Part shown: in pieces, positions 5,922 through 27,065 of the stretch
Numbering within the stretch: the stretch's first letter is position 1
Layout: every line of letters begins with the position of its first letter
From: a virus
Lineage: Duplodnaviria; Caudoviricetes
Strand: one strand, 5' to 3'
Virus record (IMG/VR): IMGVR_UViG_3300028048_000004
Span: 6,958-70,957 of that record
Length of the DNA: 64,000 bases
Notes under the pieces: model-generated
Database searches by the model: none
What the model was told of the DNA's origin: nothing
What the model saw: only the letters and a program-made list of their open reading frames with translations
Position numbers and translations under genes: made by a program

Positions 5922-6962
5922 TTAATTTTCTTTCATAACTTTATCTACCAACTTTTCCACACAATTTAATAGTGTCTGATCTGTTTTTAATTTCTCATAT
6001 ACACTGGATTGTCCATGTATCTTACCTTCCAAAAGTTCTCCAGTCTCTATATCTACTATATCAAACCACGCACCAGATTTTTTCACAATGTCATATTTAA
6101 TTGCCACTTCTATTAAATCACGCAGATAATCAATACCAATCTCATAATTAATGGTATAAAAACCAGTACGTCTAACAGGTGGACAGGTTTTGTTTTTGGT
6201 CATGGACATCATAACTATATTACCAACCGGACTCTCCGCAGACCGTGTTAATTCGTTACCCTTATCATCTATGAACTTGCCACGACTAAACTGCATACGA
6301 ACAGCACAAAAATGTTTCCACGCTTTGCCGCCGGGTGTAACTACTCCACCCCATGTACTGTTTAAGTCTTCTCGTATCTGATTGATGCCGATCCCGGTAC
6401 ACTTATGTCTCTGCATAAGCATTTCTATCTTTTTACCAAACAATGTGAGAGACTTCGCTATACCACCATATGTCTTGTCTTCCATTGTCTTTTCAAGTTC
6501 CTGACTAGACATTAATGCACCTATACTGTCAAGTACCCATAATCCTACTTCCCCGGTATCTACGCTGTCACAGATAATTTGAAAAATCTCTTCCGCAGAT
6601 TGAGATTTTGGCTGTAAAATGTACATCTTATCTACATCTACACCGATTTTCTTTGCCCACTCAACATCCAACGTGTTTTCAGCATCTATGTACAAAACAT
6701 CCCTATCATCCCCGGATTTCTGATAGTTTGCAACAATATCTAGCGCAGTTGTTGTTTTCCCACCATGCTCTTCACCGTAAAATTCTGTTATCTTACCTAT
6801 AGGAATGCCGCCGAACGTACAATAGTTCATTCTAGGAGAAGTAAACGGGATACGTTTATAAGAAAATTCACTTAAACCCTGTGTAATGATTTCTTCTTTA
6901 AACCGTTTGTTTGCATTTTTCATAATCTCATCAAGTTTTAATCCCATAAGTAATTCCCTCAT
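5922..6962 (-). CDS. recA: RecA-family recombinase
   Basis: GGIPIGKITEFYGEEHGGKTT; YIDAENTLD; VLDSIGAL; INQIRE; TPGGKAWKH. Confidence 0.95.
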   Translation of the reverse strand: MRELLMGLKLDEIMKNANKRFKEEIITQGLSEFSYKRIPFTSPRMNYCTFGGIPIGKITEFYGEEHGGKTTTALDIVANYQKSGDDRDVLYIDAENTLDVEWAKKIGVDVDKMYILQPKSQSAEEIFQIICDSVDTGEVGLWVLDSIGALMSSQELEKTMEDKTYGGIAKSLTLFGKKIEMLMQRHKCTGIGINQIREDLNSTWGGVVTPGGKAWKHFCAVRMQFSRGKFIDDKGNELTRSAESPVGNIVMMSMTKNKTCPPVRRTGFYTINYEIGIDYLRDLIEVAIKYDIVKKSGAWFDIVDIETGELLEGKIHGQSSVYEKLKTDQTLLNCVEKLVDKVMKEN

Positions 6963-7201: not shown

Positions 7202-7837
7202 TCACCCCACTATATCGGCAACATATGGTAATCCACGTAAAATCTCCACAAAGTCTCTCCACTCATCCAACTTATGTCCAGTACGCTCTTTTATAATCTT
7301 GAACACTGTTTCATAAGACATACAAACTGTTCTTCGCTGATTGTAAGAGGATGGAAGTAACTGAATTAACTGCCACCAGTATTCTTTATTCTTTGTACTC
7401 AAATATTGATTCCTATACTGATTCATCAAATTTATAACACCATTAAGAATAATAATAGATGTCCCTTTTATTAAATGCTCATGACTAAAATCGTCTAATT
7501 CAAATTCTTTGGCGGCAATCTTATGCATAGTAGAACATGATACCTGTGATTTACCTACAGTATAACGATCCATTTCTTTCCACCAGTATAACGGCGCTGT
7601 AATATCCATTGATACTTGTATCATTCTAGCATATGTCCTATGCTCTGTTCCTGCTTTATATAATCTTCTCATGAGATTTAAATCATTTTCTCCAATTCTT
7701 GCTTGGATTTCTGGGCTTCCGTTTGCACCTGTCACAACAAAAATACTATCACTTTTATCCCAACTATTCATAGGATTGCGAAGTCCTCGGATTGCTCCTT
7801 CAAAATTAGATACTTCAACGTGTTCCACTCTTATCAT
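7202..7837 (-). CDS. ThyX-like (Thy1 fold) protein
   Basis: AIRGLRNPMNSWDKSDS, HRTYARMIQVSMDITAPLYWWKEMDRY, LLPSSYNQRR; canonical RHRxxS motif not present. Confidence 0.6.
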   Translation of the reverse strand: MIRVEHVEVSNFEGAIRGLRNPMNSWDKSDSIFVVTGANGSPEIQARIGENDLNLMRRLYKAGTEHRTYARMIQVSMDITAPLYWWKEMDRYTVGKSQVSCSTMHKIAAKEFELDDFSHEHLIKGTSIIILNGVINLMNQYRNQYLSTKNKEYWWQLIQLLPSSYNQRRTVCMSYETVFKIIKERTGHKLDEWRDFVEILRGLPYVADIVG

Positions 7838-8369
7838 ACTTCTTCACCTCAAATCTTCCATATTGATTACCAATAAATTTTTGCAGACCGTTTTCAAATG
7901 AATGTAATGTATTATCACTATAAGTACACCACTCTAAATTCTCCGCCCTGTTATCATTTTTAATACCATTCTTATGATTAACACACGGTAAATCATTTGG
8001 GTTTGGAATAAAGCACTTTGCTATAACTCTATGTGACTGCTCTGTACTATTATCACCTGTGTTTATCCATAAATAATCATTGTTATCTGTTCTTTGTTTC
8101 ATTATTTTACAATTACGAATAGTAATAAACTGTCCTGTTGAAAAAACTAATATTCCCTTATACAATACGGCATCATCTAATTTCAAATTATTAATTTTGC
8201 AACATTCTTTTATCTTTTGAATTTTTCTATAACTTAATTCCAAAATAGCATCAAATTCTGTTGCAACTGTTATATAAGGTTTTGAATGTAACTCATATCC
8301 ATATTTGTTCTTATGATAACCTTTATTTTGATAATGATTAAATAGATATTTTAACAACTCTAATTCCAT
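7815..8369 (-). CDS. Free-standing HNH homing endonuclease
   Basis: HRVIAKCFIPNPNDLPCVNHKNGIKNDNRAENLEWCT. Confidence 0.9.
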   Translation of the reverse strand: MELELLKYLFNHYQNKGYHKNKYGYELHSKPYITVATEFDAILELSYRKIQKIKECCKINNLKLDDAVLYKGILVFSTGQFITIRNCKIMKQRTDNNDYLWINTGDNSTEQSHRVIAKCFIPNPNDLPCVNHKNGIKNDNRAENLEWCTYSDNTLHSFENGLQKFIGNQYGRFEVKKYDKSGTR

Positions 8370-8422
8370 GCCACGAATAGCATGTTTAAATTCCCATACA
8401 TCTATTTTTCTACTTTAATCAT
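8367..8422 (-). pseudogene. Frameshifted remnant of the original thyX-like 5' end
   Basis: ATG overlapping the mazG stop reads MIKVEK*; the shifted frame reads IDVWEFKHAIRGM, homologous to MIRVEHVEVSNFEGAIRGL of 7202-7837. Confidence 0.8.
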
Positions 8423-22212: not shown

Positions 22213-22485
22213 TTATTCTTCACACGAACACACTAGTTTCGGCACAAATTCATCATACTTCTGCTCTAACTCTTTCTCAAGTCCCTGTAACTCATCTAAC
22301 CTATTATTTCTTCTTAATAAAGAGTCTTGCTGATACTCCATAGATATAACTATCTGTTTCCAATAATGTACAAGTTCTTGATTGGCATAATTTAATTGCT
22401 GTGATGCTTCGACAAACTCAGTTTGATGTTTTGCATAATTTCTTAATTCATCTTCATTCATATGGTTAATTACTTCATCAAACAT
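22213..22485 (-). CDS. Hypothetical protein
   Basis: ORF track; coupled to neighbour. Confidence 0.5.
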   Translation of the reverse strand: MFDEVINHMNEDELRNYAKHQTEFVEASQQLNYANQELVHYWKQIVISMEYQQDSLLRRNNRLDELQGLEKELEQKYDEFVPKLVCSCEE

Positions 22486-22486
22486 T

Positions 22487-22837
22487 CTAATACCTCCAAT
22501 TCTTAAAGGTTTTTAACCAATCTTCATAACTCATCTTTTCAGAACCAAGTACAGTACACTCTGTTTCACAATATTTAGCCAAAGACTCGATTGTTTTAAA
22601 TACAGGAGATATGGGCGAACCCTCTGATGTAGTTTCCCAAAGCTGATATCCATCACCTTTTGGTGGATCAAGTTCAAAATCTGGACAACCATAATCTTTG
22701 AATTTTAATCCCTTTAATCTGGCATACAACTTACAATCATCACAATTCCCGCCACATAAATGATGTAAATATCCGTACCATATCTTATTTATGGGCCAAT
22801 CAAAATCTAATGGTACTCTTTTTAATTCCCTTCCCAT
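22487..22837 (-). CDS. Hypothetical protein
   Basis: MGRELKRVPLDFDWP...GYQLWETTSEGSPISPVF, a recognisable conserved phage hypothetical pattern. Confidence 0.6.
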   Translation of the reverse strand: MGRELKRVPLDFDWPINKIWYGYLHHLCGGNCDDCKLYARLKGLKFKDYGCPDFELDPPKGDGYQLWETTSEGSPISPVFKTIESLAKYCETECTVLGSEKMSYEDWLKTFKNWRY

Positions 22838-22840
22838 CGT

Positions 22841-23038
22841 TTAGAACACCTCCTCAAGTTGCATAAGTTCTTCTTTGGTACATTCATTAGCGTCCTTTCT
22901 TCCTTTCGGAAAAATATACTCTGTTACTATCTTTCTATTCTGCATATTCATTCTTATTCTTTTTCTTGCGGCTAATCCGCTTTCATCCATATCTGTTGCA
23001 AGAATTATTTTTCTACATGGTAATTCTCTTAGCTGTTC
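22841..23038 (-). pseudogene. Orphan 3' remnant of the original primase gene (65 codons, no start)
   Basis: EQLRELPCRKIILATDMDESGLAARKRI...KIVT...KDANECTKEELMQLEEVF*, paralogous to the C-terminus of 23842-24816. Confidence 0.88.
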
Positions 23039-23840
23039 TTCCTTTATGATAGCCTTCTGGAATATCGTCTGTAGTTTTCAAACGTATATTATTTATTCCA
23101 TTTGTTACCCACATCCAAACACCTTTTTCTCCCTTATTATACGGCTCTTTTCCTTTCATAGGATTCTGCCATCCGCTTGCATATCTTTCTTTTAATAACT
23201 GTGATTTTAATTTTCGTGTTTCTTCTGATTGCTTTGTACCTACTAACTTTTGCCTTATCTTTTCTTTTGTTTCTTCTGTATGACAACCTGTAAAACCAGA
23301 ACTTCCTTTCTTAAACATTCCATCATTTCTAAAATCTGGATGTTCTCTATGAAATTTTTTCTTTGCTTCACTTCTTGTTTTATCTCGTTCTGGTGTATGT
23401 AAATATCCTTCAATAAACCCATCGTCTAAATACTTTTGTAATTCAGATTGTTTCACATATTTTTCGATTTCACCATTATTTATAACAGTGCGTCCGGACA
23501 TAGACATTTTCATTTTCTCCCGTCTATGTTCTTTTTCAGCATCAGTTAATCCAGAAAATGTATCTCCACCATCACCACCTTTAGAAATATTATATCCGAT
23601 AAACATATTATCACTATGGTGTATGTGAATATAAATCTTTTCAAATCTATTTATATCAGAACGTGTTTCACACCATTTCAACAATTCAACTTTGAAATTC
23701 TCAATACCATATTTATCAAATGCTCTACGAATTAACTTACCGCTACCCTTATATTCTTTATCAAATACTTGTGATTTATGCTGACCTATATAAATCTTGC
23801 CGTTTATTAAATTTGTTGTCTTATAAATATACCCATACAT
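23013..23840 (-). CDS. Free-standing GIY-YIG homing endonuclease
   Basis: GYIYKTTNLINGKIYIGQH; YKGSG; NUMOD3-like HTEETKEKIR. Confidence 0.9.
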   Translation of the reverse strand: MYGYIYKTTNLINGKIYIGQHKSQVFDKEYKGSGKLIRRAFDKYGIENFKVELLKWCETRSDINRFEKIYIHIHHSDNMFIGYNISKGGDGGDTFSGLTDAEKEHRREKMKMSMSGRTVINNGEIEKYVKQSELQKYLDDGFIEGYLHTPERDKTRSEAKKKFHREHPDFRNDGMFKKGSSGFTGCHTEETKEKIRQKLVGTKQSEETRKLKSQLLKERYASGWQNPMKGKEPYNKGEKGVWMWVTNGINNIRLKTTDDIPEGYHKGRTAKRITM

Positions 23841-23841
23841 A

Positions 23842-24816
23842 CTAAAAAACTTCTCCTAACGCATAAAATTCTTCTCTTGTCATATCATTCATATCTTTAG
23901 CATGGTCTGGATATGTTCTATAATCTAACTGGGTGACGATTTTATTATTTATTTCCTTTCTCAACCTTATTCTTGCTTTTTTGCCGGCATCATCTTTATC
24001 AGTTGCCAATATAACTTTTCTACACGGAAGTTTCTTTATCTGTGCAATAGATAATTCATTACCCAAACCATTTAATGCTACTGCATATTTATTATAACAC
24101 CAAATAGTTAAAGCGTCAAGCATACTTTCACAAATATAAACTTCATCTGGAAACTTCTCTAACCGACTTAACTCATACAATCCGTAAAGTGGTTTTTCTA
24201 CTCCTTCCGGGTAATGAAAAAACTTATTTTTGACAGAACGTCTTGCAACAAATAGGCAATTACCATTAACATCCCTAACAGGAAAAGTGATGCAATCGGT
24301 ATCACTATCATAACCAATATCAAATAATTCAATAACATCATCTGTTAATCCTCTTTTATACATATATGGATGTGTATATCTATATTTATCTAATTCTTCT
24401 TCCGTAACATACCTTGTACGATTATTATGGCTAACAGATTTATTATCACGGTAAAAATCAAGTGATACATCTTTTCTCTCCTCCACTTGTACTGTAGCAA
24501 AATTCTTTAATAACCACTGCCACCCAAATTTACCTACAATATCATCTGTGTACCCGAAACAATGAGATATTACTTCCTGTAAAGAATGCACTTCACCACA
24601 GGCAAAACAGTGAAAAATCCCATCCTCTTTTCGTATTCCGGCAGACGGTCTACGTTCTTGTCCACCGCTGTGGTATGGACATTGAACCATAACATGAGTT
24701 GATGTCGGCTTCATTTTTTGCAATAGCAAAACATTATTTGCAGATAATTGATTCCTTAATTCCATTAAAATGTCAATTAATTCTACACTAAACTGAACAT
24801 CATTAATTATCATCAC
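23842..24816 (-). CDS. dnaG: DNA primase (CHC2 zinc finger + TOPRIM)
   Basis: QCPYH...HCFAC; ICESMLDAL; ATDKDDAG; KDMND. Confidence 0.9.
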   Translation of the reverse strand: MMIINDVQFSVELIDILMELRNQLSANNVLLLQKMKPTSTHVMVQCPYHSGGQERRPSAGIRKEDGIFHCFACGEVHSLQEVISHCFGYTDDIVGKFGWQWLLKNFATVQVEERKDVSLDFYRDNKSVSHNNRTRYVTEEELDKYRYTHPYMYKRGLTDDVIELFDIGYDSDTDCITFPVRDVNGNCLFVARRSVKNKFFHYPEGVEKPLYGLYELSRLEKFPDEVYICESMLDALTIWCYNKYAVALNGLGNELSIAQIKKLPCRKVILATDKDDAGKKARIRLRKEINNKIVTQLDYRTYPDHAKDMNDMTREEFYALGEVF

Positions 24817-25126
24817 TAACCCCTATCGTTACACCGTGCATATATTCCGTGACTTCAAACTTTTTTGCTTCTGCATACCGACTATAATTGCCAACGATTT
24901 TGCCCTTATCCGTTGGGTACTCAACGGTGACTTCTTTGTCCATGTCAAAATCTAACAGGATGGTTATCAAATCTTTTACAGTCATTTTATTTTCCCTTTC
25001 ATTCCCCAACTGTTCTAATATTCTTCTCACAGCGTGTGGTGCTGTGTATCCACAGAATGTATCCCACCGTAAATTATCTTCTGGAAACTCATTAATTGCC
25101 GCCTGTCTACTGATCAAGTTATCCAT
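24803..25126 (-). CDS. Hypothetical protein
   Basis: ORF track; may contain an internal start (MTVKDLI). Confidence 0.45.
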   Translation of the reverse strand: MDNLISRQAAINEFPEDNLRWDTFCGYTAPHAVRRILEQLGNERENKMTVKDLITILLDFDMDKEVTVEYPTDKGKIVGNYSRYAEAKKFEVTEYMHGVTIGVSDDN

Positions 25127-25506: not shown

Positions 25507-25764
25507 TCAAGTTTTTTCAACTCTTCTATACCTAACTTCATCCTTCCACCTCTTTATGCGTTGACTCCTATCTTTATTTGCTCCTAAGCATCTACTTGAA
25601 TATACTCGTATAAAATGTTTACCGGATTTCCACGCTTCTGTTGCTGATATTCTTTTTGAACACTCTGCATGGGCAAGAAAATAATCTAAATCCCATTTAT
25701 CTTCAAAATTAAAAATCATGTCTTTATATTGAGCATAAGTAGTATGACTCCAAGCAAATCCCAT
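25507..25764 (-). CDS. Hypothetical protein
   Basis: Coupled to the dnaB stop. Confidence 0.5.
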   Translation of the reverse strand: MGFAWSHTTYAQYKDMIFNFEDKWDLDYFLAHAECSKRISATEAWKSGKHFIRVYSSRCLGANKDRSQRIKRWKDEVRYRRVEKT

Positions 25765-27065
25765 TAGAACACATCCTCCTTATCTCCGCTAAACTGCTTT
25801 TTTACTTCCCGAACTTTTCTTTCGGTTCTTTGACGTGGTTCTGCATCATCGTAAGATGGTACAAAAACAAAATCCCCTGTATCAATATCCCACTTATAAC
25901 TTAACTTTCCACCAACAGCACCGAACCGCTGTTTCTTAACTTGCATTTTTAAGATGCCATCTTTTGTCTGTCTAATTGCTATAACCTTACTAGCATTGTG
26001 AGATATCCCGTCACTATCCCGAATCGTTTCAAGAGCCGGTGTATCATCACTATCCTCTTCCTGCACACCGCTTCGATTTGCTTGTACTACAATAAGAATT
26101 GGAACTTTAACTTCCATTGACAATGCCATTAGATCTTCACTAATGTTTGTTAGTGTAGTTGTTTTATTATCACCCCTCCGGTATCTCTCATCTGTCATAT
26201 ATGTAATACCGTCTATAGCAACTAAATCCAATTTATACTGCTGTATCCAGTTCTTTAATTTTGTAACTGTAATCTTCCGATCAAAATCATTTGGTGTAGC
26301 AACCATAAAAGAGTTTTTAGTTTCTTTTAAATCTCTCAAATAGTCTGCATAAGCAGTTTCATCAACATCATCCTTTCCCCACATTAACCCACGATTGCTA
26401 AAATTCTTGTACAGGGTATCAAATCTGTACCCGATACTACTAGCACCCATCTCAGGACTTATATATCCAACGTTATATCCAATCTGCCACACATGAGTAC
26501 ACATCTTTTCAAGCACCCACGACTTTCCCTGATTAGTGCGGGCAAAGATAACAAACAACTCTTCTTCTCTCTGGATACCGTGAATTAAATCATCCAACTC
26601 TTCAAATCCACAAGTAAAAAACCAGTCTGTCTGATGCTCCTTGCGCTCCAAAAATTGTGTGTACCTATCCTCTGCGTCCGATATAATATTCACACCACCC
26701 AATCTATAATTTGGCTGTAAATCCTTTAACGCATGTACCATGTACTCTGCGGCCGCATTTGCATCTGTCTTTAACAGTTCTGCAACCTTCTGTACAACTG
26801 GGACTGACTTATAATAAAGATATTCCTCACGAATTGTATCAACAAGGTATCTGTCCGACTCTGTGACCTCTACCAAATCAATTTCTGGAAACTTCGACAA
26901 AAACGTTGCTTTATCAGGCACACCACCATACTCTTTGTTGTGCTGTAAAATAAACTGATATTCCTGCTCATATCCTACAAAATAATCTTCTGTAAGAAGA
27001 TTATCTTCGATAATGGATAAATCTTTGGTTGATAAAACTTTTGACAAAATCTGGAGGCTTACCAT
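25764..27065 (-). CDS. dnaB: DnaB-like replicative helicase
   Basis: FARTNQGKSW; ISPEM; VAIDGITYM; VVQANRSG; DSDGISHNAS. Confidence 0.9.
   Translation of the reverse strand: MVSLQILSKVLSTKDLSIIEDNLLTEDYFVGYEQEYQFILQHNKEYGGVPDKATFLSKFPEIDLVEVTESDRYLVDTIREEYLYYKSVPVVQKVAELLKTDANAAAEYMVHALKDLQPNYRLGGVNIISDAEDRYTQFLERKEHQTDWFFTCGFEELDDLIHGIQREEELFVIFARTNQGKSWVLEKMCTHVWQIGYNVGYISPEMGASSIGYRFDTLYKNFSNRGLMWGKDDVDETAYADYLRDLKETKNSFMVATPNDFDRKITVTKLKNWIQQYKLDLVAIDGITYMTDERYRRGDNKTTTLTNISEDLMALSMEVKVPILIVVQANRSGVQEEDSDDTPALETIRDSDGISHNASKVIAIRQTKDGILKMQVKKQRFGAVGGKLSYKWDIDTGDFVFVPSYDDAEPRQRTERKVREVKKQFSGDKEDVF

Follow-up and report, generated by a model that had tools for sequence, protein, structure and literature searches.

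We analyzed a 64,000-nucleotide stretch of DNA from a Caudoviricetes virus (the window; positions 6,958 to 70,957 of IMG/VR record IMGVR_UViG_3300028048_000004), in which a primase gene is followed by a free-standing GIY-YIG homing endonuclease gene and then by a second, start-less copy of a primase 3′ end. The source record is 70,957 bp long with direct terminal repeats at its ends, and the contigs related to this phage come, by their record names, from bovine and rumen metagenomes. A nucleotide search of a phage collection found no close relative, its only matches being Clostridium phage primase genes and Staphylococcus phage GIY-YIG genes at ~70%. The locus lies on the minus strand, in the order DnaB-like helicase of the replication module (25764-27065), some small open reading frames (ORFs), primase (23842-24816), GIY-YIG gene (23013-23840), start-less primase-end frame (22841-23035) and next gene (22487-22837).

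The primase is a full-length ORF of 324 amino acids, inside the 306- to 365-residue range of its homologues. Pfam models place a zinc ribbon at residues 34-76 (Zn_ribbon_DnaG, 25.9 bits; cut-off 24.9) and a TOPRIM domain at residues 227-312 (Toprim_2, 52 bits; cut-off 22.1), and the protein matches PHROG 47 ‘DNA primase’ (5.9e-44); the presence of a CHC2 zinc ribbon and TOPRIM in a single full-length ORF identifies it as DnaG-type. The endonuclease ATG lies 2 nt beyond the primase stop. Its 275-residue product is SegE-like, matching PF19835 SegE_GIY-YIG over residues 2-69 (28.6 bits; cut-off 25), PHROG 314 ‘homing endonuclease’ over residues 1-232 (1.7e-34) and also PHROG 7168 ‘homing endonuclease’. 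The GYIY..YIG motif is visible at residues 3-19, a PDB sequence search gave a weak match to the I-TevI catalytic domain (1mk0, E 0.8), and no Pfam model matched residues 90-275.

Downstream of the endonuclease lies an orphan primase 3′ end of 64 codons and a stop, which we call the remnant. Its homology to the primase starts at ~23035-23038, ~20 nt ahead of the endonuclease stop and in a different frame, and ends at TAA 22841-22843; the last ~7 endonuclease codons and their stop (TAG 23013-23015) are read from remnant DNA in the other frame. These coordinates confirm the original prediction, made from the sequence alone, that a start-less primase-end frame overlaps the last codons of the GIY-YIG gene. 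The same prediction described the two ends as roughly half identical with the same EVF terminus, and BLASTP bears this out: 33 of 67 positions are identical (49%, E 1e-17), the match falls on primase residues 259-324 (23845-24042), and the last three residues are the same. This resemblance is far beyond chance. The remnant alone matches Toprim_2 (27.6 bits), and across the whole 70,957-bp record, only the gene and the remnant match primase. As had also been noticed, the remnant adjoins the next gene, whose ATG (22835-22837) lies 3 nt past the remnant stop.

Such a split arrangement could recall a group I intron or an intein, which we considered and rejected. The upstream ORF already has a whole TOPRIM domain and its own stop and ends like its homologues, and the downstream piece duplicates residues 259-324, making it redundant, not complementary. 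Positions 22400-25000 gave no Rfam intron match, which likewise led us to reject an intron.

We then compared the ends of the primase’s relatives, using the best 120 of roughly 5,000 primase homologues (Pnnnn for proteins, Lnnn for loci whose DNA was fetched and WIN for the window’s own locus), which we aligned. Over the last 67 residues, these 120 homologues form two main classes, type A, to which the resident primase belongs, and type B, which is remnant-like; a few ends are of other or intermediate kinds. Type-A ends are 87-100% identical in 38 of 40 proteins and 76-78% identical in the other two, and residues 1-250 of type-A proteins are merely 61-79% identical to the window. Type-B ends are 72-92% identical to the remnant, with residues 1-250 being 64-77% identical to the window. 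Consequently, similarity of the N-terminal part does not predict which type of end a homologue has.

The type of end and the presence of the endonuclease are tightly associated. In all 15 type-A loci that we examined, this endonuclease gene comes next (13 with DNA, which are WIN, L044, L045, L046, L048, L054, L057, L059, L062, L064, L065, L068 and L069, plus P0028 and P0020 by gene calls). At the 12 DNA loci other than the window, the endonuclease orthologues are 73-99% identical and begin 1-4 nt past the type-A primase stop. Endonuclease-free loci have a remnant-like or other end in frame and no second primase fragment. The remnant is therefore not a duplication common to endonuclease-free relatives, being found in 0 of ~25 such loci and in recognizable form in 12 of the 13 type-A loci with DNA.

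Among those 12 remnants, seven are whole and five partly deleted. The complete ones begin at the same codon (..EQL[RS].LPCRK) and are open to the native stop (WIN, L044, L045, L046, L054, L057 and L059). Two are reduced to their first and last few codons (L062 and L069), three to the last ~30, ~20 and ~9 codons (L048, L065 and L064, respectively), and L068 has none that is recognizable. The endonuclease genes also vary: an earlier stop shortens the product to 270 amino acids in L045 (518-1330), the stop is lost in L046 (3001-3900) so that the frame continues for 25 codons into the remnant, and in L061 (1884-2713), whose primase is identical to that of L059, the gene is broken at ~residues 69-85. 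We also looked for a source arrangement, with a native type-A primase, an intergenic endonuclease and no remnant; the candidates L062, L064 and L065 were rejected because all have remnant vestiges. Two proteins, P0059 and P0064, have A-like ends with no endonuclease, and at 58-63% identity they are too distant to be the type-A donor.

Sliding DNA identity between the window and nine other loci that carry the type-A end with its endonuclease gene (the cassette) reveals where the shared segment begins. Before primase nt ~640, identity to the window is 40-90%, and at nt ~650 it jumps to 93-100%. The ~1.1-kb block from there to near the end of the endonuclease gene is 96-100% identical among WIN, L044 and L045, compared to 63-86% upstream of it and 81-91% in the remnant. 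Remnant DNA is 81-91% identical to the window’s in the closest loci and 30-60% in the others, and beyond the remnant there is no identity.

The left edge of the block falls just past EKPLYGLYEL (residues 207-216), which is conserved in both types, and coincides with a variable-length linker before TOPRIM. The imported tract therefore consists of the linker and the whole TOPRIM domain (residues ~217-324 and the stop, 23842-24168), joined to a backbone-derived part (residues 1-216, 24169-24816) that comprises the zinc ribbon and an N-terminal portion of the catalytic core, with EKPLYGLYEL at its end. This revises one element of the original prediction. Its claim that the primase is a chimera whose end was brought with the endonuclease stands, and its claim that only the second half of TOPRIM was imported does not. 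The foreign tract reaches ~42 codons upstream of the duplicated part; since only the last 64 codons are present twice, the recipient’s first TOPRIM half was replaced.

As the original prediction anticipated, the histories of the primase’s N- and C-terminal parts are discordant. In a tree of the C-terminal part (residues 259-324, with the seven complete remnants included), type A forms one clade with very short branches (SH-aLRT, the Shimodaira-Hasegawa-like approximate likelihood ratio test, 89), and the remnants fall at various places among ends of type B and other kinds. In a tree of the N-terminal part (residues 1-210), the type-A label needs 19-21 changes, at least 6 of which are forced by well-supported branches, and the window sits in a supported clade with 11 type-B and 2 type-A proteins. 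By the approximately unbiased (AU) test, a single type-A clade is rejected for residues 1-210 (delta lnL, the log-likelihood difference, 251; P = 0.0004) and again for residues 56-205 (delta lnL 65, P = 0.018), a test that omits residues 1-55, where separate allele classes exist. One cassette is thus present on many different primase backbones.

We found that the remnant is the old native end, as had been proposed, since it clusters with primase ends that are in frame at endonuclease-free loci and is up to 92% identical to them. The closest of these ends, at 92%, is that of P0046, a type-B protein that is also the window’s nearest neighbor in the tree of residues 56-205. That one protein should be nearest to both the middle part of the window’s primase and the remnant is what one would expect if the remnant is the former end of this gene.

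The rates of change in the three segments point in the same direction. The imported TOPRIM region differs by synonymous substitution rates (dS) of 0.05-0.35 among five cassette loci, compared to 1.2 to saturation in their N-terminal parts, and the window’s type-A sub-allele is 100% identical in DNA to those of L044 and L045. Among themselves, the remnants have dS values from 0.86 to saturation and a ratio of nonsynonymous to synonymous rates (dN/dS) of ~0.06. Therefore, the remnants accumulated their differences while still within functional genes, and each capture was a separate event. The remnant junction nevertheless lies at the same codon in all seven loci, despite remnants that are merely 52-94% identical, and this fixed position fits repeated homologous homing from one founding event, not repeated illegitimate insertions.

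These data bear directly on the explanation that a tandem duplication of the primase 3′ end arose in situ, that the two copies diverged and that the endonuclease landed between them later. The copies are in direct orientation ~1 kb apart and have the LPCRK..ATD and ..EVF motifs in common, as a duplication would leave them. Yet upstream copies are 87-100% identical between loci in which the downstream copies are saturated at synonymous sites, the downstream copy groups with the intact ends of other phages instead of its upstream counterpart, two copies were found at no endonuclease-free locus, and the foreign tract starts ~42 codons before the duplicated part begins. We consider a tandem duplication to be extremely improbable.

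We propose instead that the mobile unit is a segment of ~1.13 kb (~23036-24168), composed of a foreign type-A TOPRIM end and the GIY-YIG gene, whose homing replaces the primase’s end and leaves the remnant behind; we assign this reading a probability of roughly 0.85. By analogy with T4 Seg and yeast WHO nucleases, the endonuclease would act in a mixed infection, cutting a type-B primase gene between the blocks encoding EKPLYGLYEL and QLRELPCRK. A cut near the NGLG..QL junction, which the original prediction expected, would lie inside this stretch and is plausible. The break would be repaired from the donor phage, with its left end pairing in the conserved block upstream of the linker and its right end, the recipient’s LPCRK..ATD-coding region, pairing with the donor’s downstream remnant, which would serve as the right homology arm. 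Between the two arms, the linker, the new TOPRIM domain and the endonuclease gene would be copied in.

According to this mechanism, the recipient would lose its first TOPRIM half and its last 64 codons would become the new remnant, yielding a chimeric primase that is full length and would function without any splicing. Across the presumed target, many positions distinguish type A from type B; because the chimera differs from type B there, it is presumably immune to the nuclease. The remnant would be dispensable as a protein and would decay by deletion, its first part acting as a homology arm for further rounds of homing.

Several observations weigh against this proposal. That the endonuclease drives the replacement is something we infer, and we found no near-isogenic pair of filled and empty loci, the closest N-terminal relative with an intact type-B end being 82-84% identical. 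These phages are highly mosaic, and general recombination at conserved blocks could yield part of the discordance between the primase’s two parts. The AU tests were carried out on a 35-row subset of the 121 rows that was picked after the full tree had been seen. The window’s sub-allele differs from those of five loci (L054, L057, L059 and L046 among them) by a dS of ~0.7 over residues 259-324, and the cassette family is therefore mosaic itself and not very young. Finally, the reading frame is still open in seven remnants; their recent capture accounts for this, though some use of them is conceivable.

The serious rival is mosaic recombination with no drive from a nuclease, whereby a single ancient insertion was inherited vertically and ordinary homologous recombination among co-infecting mosaic phages shuffled the 5′ parts and the remnants. 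Identity to the window fluctuates between loci even inside the cassette, consistent with such strong mosaicism; the first 50 codons of the primase also come in discrete allele types, the left cassette edge coincides with a conserved block at which frequent recombination would be expected regardless, and cleavage by the endonuclease is a prediction. However, this explanation does not account for why the near-identical block is exactly a TOPRIM end plus an endonuclease gene, why the nuclease gene is constantly present, or why the same remnant layout occurs with unrelated endonuclease families at the primase gene (L011, L019 and L005). Moreover, a neutral or costly segment cannot sweep without drive. 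We therefore judge nuclease-free recombination to be unlikely as the whole explanation, and homing of the cassette remains our preferred reading.

The same layout at other primase genes involves different nucleases. In L011 (4456-5153) and L019 (2993-3633), an HNH-type endonuclease of 186-204 amino acids with a NUMOD4-like N-terminus directly follows a primase with a third kind of C-terminus, and after it comes an orphan of the last 29 (L011) or ~22 (L019) type-B codons. The L011 orphan adjoins the same next gene as the one found in the endonuclease-free L010. From its layout, this HNH gene with its primase end appears to be a second, independent end-replacing cassette with a different junction.

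A mirror image at the 5′ end is found in L005 (2256-3076), where an orphan of the first 42 primase codons precedes a 197-aa GIY-YIG gene and a complete primase with a different 5′ allele. This replacement allele (..ELRNQLSANNVLLLQK..) also occurs in the window’s primase (24650-24816) and in 13 other proteins. The window has no endonuclease upstream of its primase; because it carries the L005 replacement allele, its primase may be chimeric at both ends.

We also considered that the remnant is retained because it is used, either as a TOPRIM-fragment protein translated from an internal ATG (a 49-aa ORF, 22841-22990), through re-initiation past the endonuclease stop, or as a leader whose translation is coupled to that of the next gene. 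In 7 of 13 loci, no stop interrupts the frame before its native one, the remnants’ dN/dS is 0.06, an ATG lies 22 nt past the endonuclease stop, and the next gene’s GAGGAGG lies in the remnant’s last codons. Against this, a low dN/dS is expected from the recent capture of a working gene, and the mean dN of the remnants is the higher one (0.117 versus 0.070); most of the remnant is gone from five loci and all of it from a sixth; the internal ATG has no Shine-Dalgarno sequence ahead of it; and half a TOPRIM domain is unlikely to fold. Retention for use is, in our view, very unlikely, and the remnant is better regarded as a by-product of homing that would serve as a homology arm.

The final codons of the remnant are a separate matter. 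The GAGGAGG at 22849-22855, inside the ..EEV.. codons, lies 11 nt ahead of the next gene’s ATG and is likely its ribosome-binding site; therefore, the very end of the remnant is probably still in use in the window. The ..EEVF codons are similarly placed as a ribosome-binding site, with a 7-9 nt spacing, in the intact type-B ends of L007 and L010 and in the remnants of L054 and L062. At eight loci (L009, L012, L013, L045, L057, L059, L064 and L065), a consensus TTGACA, a 17-nt spacer and TA(T/C)AAT are found within ~10 nt past the primase or remnant stop. The same junction thus seems to offer two alternative modes of expressing the downstream gene, a promoter or coupling through GAGGAGG. We rejected the idea that the remnant’s tail is always retained as the next gene’s ribosome-binding site; it is not general, as some loci have a promoter past the stop instead.

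Another promoter-like site lies within the imported TOPRIM coding sequence (24091-24119), ~250 nt upstream of the endonuclease start. It consists of TTGACG, a 17-nt spacer and TATAAT preceded by TGn, agreeing with the consensus at 11 of 12 positions. Its -10 hexamer is invariant in 10 of 10 type-A loci, and the 8 type-B loci lack such a site. Judged by these features, it may be the cassette’s own promoter, though coding constraint and common descent could equally explain the conservation of the -10 hexamer.

The gene beyond the remnant encodes 116 amino acids and has no family match. It is missing in L054, the closest cassette-bearing relative, where the remnant adjoins a homologue of the window’s 90-aa gene (22213-22485). 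The 116-aa gene appears to be a small inserted gene.

Free-standing phage endonucleases that spread with co-conversion of their flanking DNA are textbook knowledge. The Seg and Mob genes sit between genes, and their flanks are converted, not duplicated. In T4-like phages, where ‘intronless homing’ and marker exclusion are described, these free-standing genes are spread by double-strand-break repair with flank co-conversion, and the cut can be distant from the insertion site (PMC2988022). The window resembles them in that a phage-borne, free-standing GIY-YIG gene lies beside an essential replication gene (PMC2988022). Unlike Seg and Mob genes, the element described here sits within the ancestral gene and retains a copy of the end that it displaced. 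It also shares with group I introns and inteins that carry homing endonucleases a life inside an essential gene that is not destroyed; unlike them, it involves no splicing, and its downstream piece is redundant.

In the limited full-text literature that we searched, we found no phage precedent for the replacement of a gene end that keeps a remnant. The words duplication, remnant and pseudogene have no occurrence in the review of T4 homing (PMC2988022), and a study of ICP1 nucleases at recombination boundaries mentions neither remnant nor pseudogene, its two mentions of duplication concerning the endonuclease genes themselves.

The closest parallels come from eukaryotes. In Coughlan et al. (2020, PMC7282813), the WHO elements of Torulaspora and Lachancea are described as homing into an essential gene, replacing its 3′ end with a resistant foreign copy and pushing the old 3′ end downstream, where the fragment is a homology arm and where fragments and nuclease genes decay. 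The window shares with the WHO elements a nuclease gene just downstream of an essential gene, a displaced end fragment, discordant 5′ and 3′ trees, and decay (PMC7282813). WHO genes encode intein-like LAGLIDADG-zinc finger nucleases that operate in the eukaryotic nucleus, in meiosis and at FBA1, as compared to a Seg-like GIY-YIG nuclease, a phage and a primase here; cleavage has been demonstrated for WHO6 (PMC7282813) and is predicted for the present element. Unlike in the WHO system, the imported tract here spans an entire protein domain, its start lying ~42 codons before that of the duplicated part, and we saw no tandem clusters of successive elements.

The original prediction had pointed to fungal mitochondrial endonucleases that import foreign gene ends, with Allomyces atp6 as its example, and the anatomy indeed fits the mORF ‘gene hybrids’ (PMC3630166). 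These are known from Allomyces macrogynus atp6 and from Glomus atp6, atp9, cox2 and nad3; close relatives resemble the native copy but not the inserted one, and the copies have ~64-81% DNA identity (PMC3630166). As in the window, a foreign C-terminus in frame, an endonuclease ORF and the native C-terminus follow one another in order, and one mORF element, that of atp9, has a GIY-YIG nuclease (PMC3630166). The mORFs differ by occurring in organelle genomes, by being mostly of the LAGLIDADG family and by having several ORFs fused in frame, as opposed to the endonuclease here, which has its own start 2 nt past the primase stop (PMC3630166). In addition, and unlike the mORFs, the same cassette can be traced here through many phage backbones.

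The mechanism is thus already known from yeast nuclei and fungal mitochondria, and the present case is well supported at the population level. Beyond this case, we think it somewhat probable that remnant-keeping end replacement is a general, so far undescribed route by which free-standing homing endonucleases enter essential phage genes without introns or inteins. On the same footing, the rumen-phage primase gene would be a hotspot for at least three unrelated cassettes (GIY-YIG at the 3′ end, HNH at the 3′ end and GIY-YIG at the 5′ end), and its product a patchwork of swapped modules that include TOPRIM, with a promoter of the cassette’s own being possible.

Alongside introns and inteins, such a route would give homing endonucleases a third means of residing inside essential phage genes. 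It would account for short orphan gene-end ORFs by endonuclease genes, which are called as 59-77-aa ‘Toprim’ proteins, for sharp jumps in divergence within single phage genes, and for chimeric replication proteins whose domains have different histories. The swapping of an essential enzyme’s whole catalytic domain between phages that are 60-80% identical in the remaining protein amounts to a natural experiment on how compatible domains are. At least 13 loci that have decayed to differing degrees document, with unusual completeness, how such an element lives and declines across a population, and because the predicted target spans ~200 bp of the type-B primase gene, the model can be tested directly.

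Elsewhere in the window, in the region 7202-8422 on the minus strand, an HNH gene (7815-8369) lies immediately upstream of a thyX-like gene (7202-7837).

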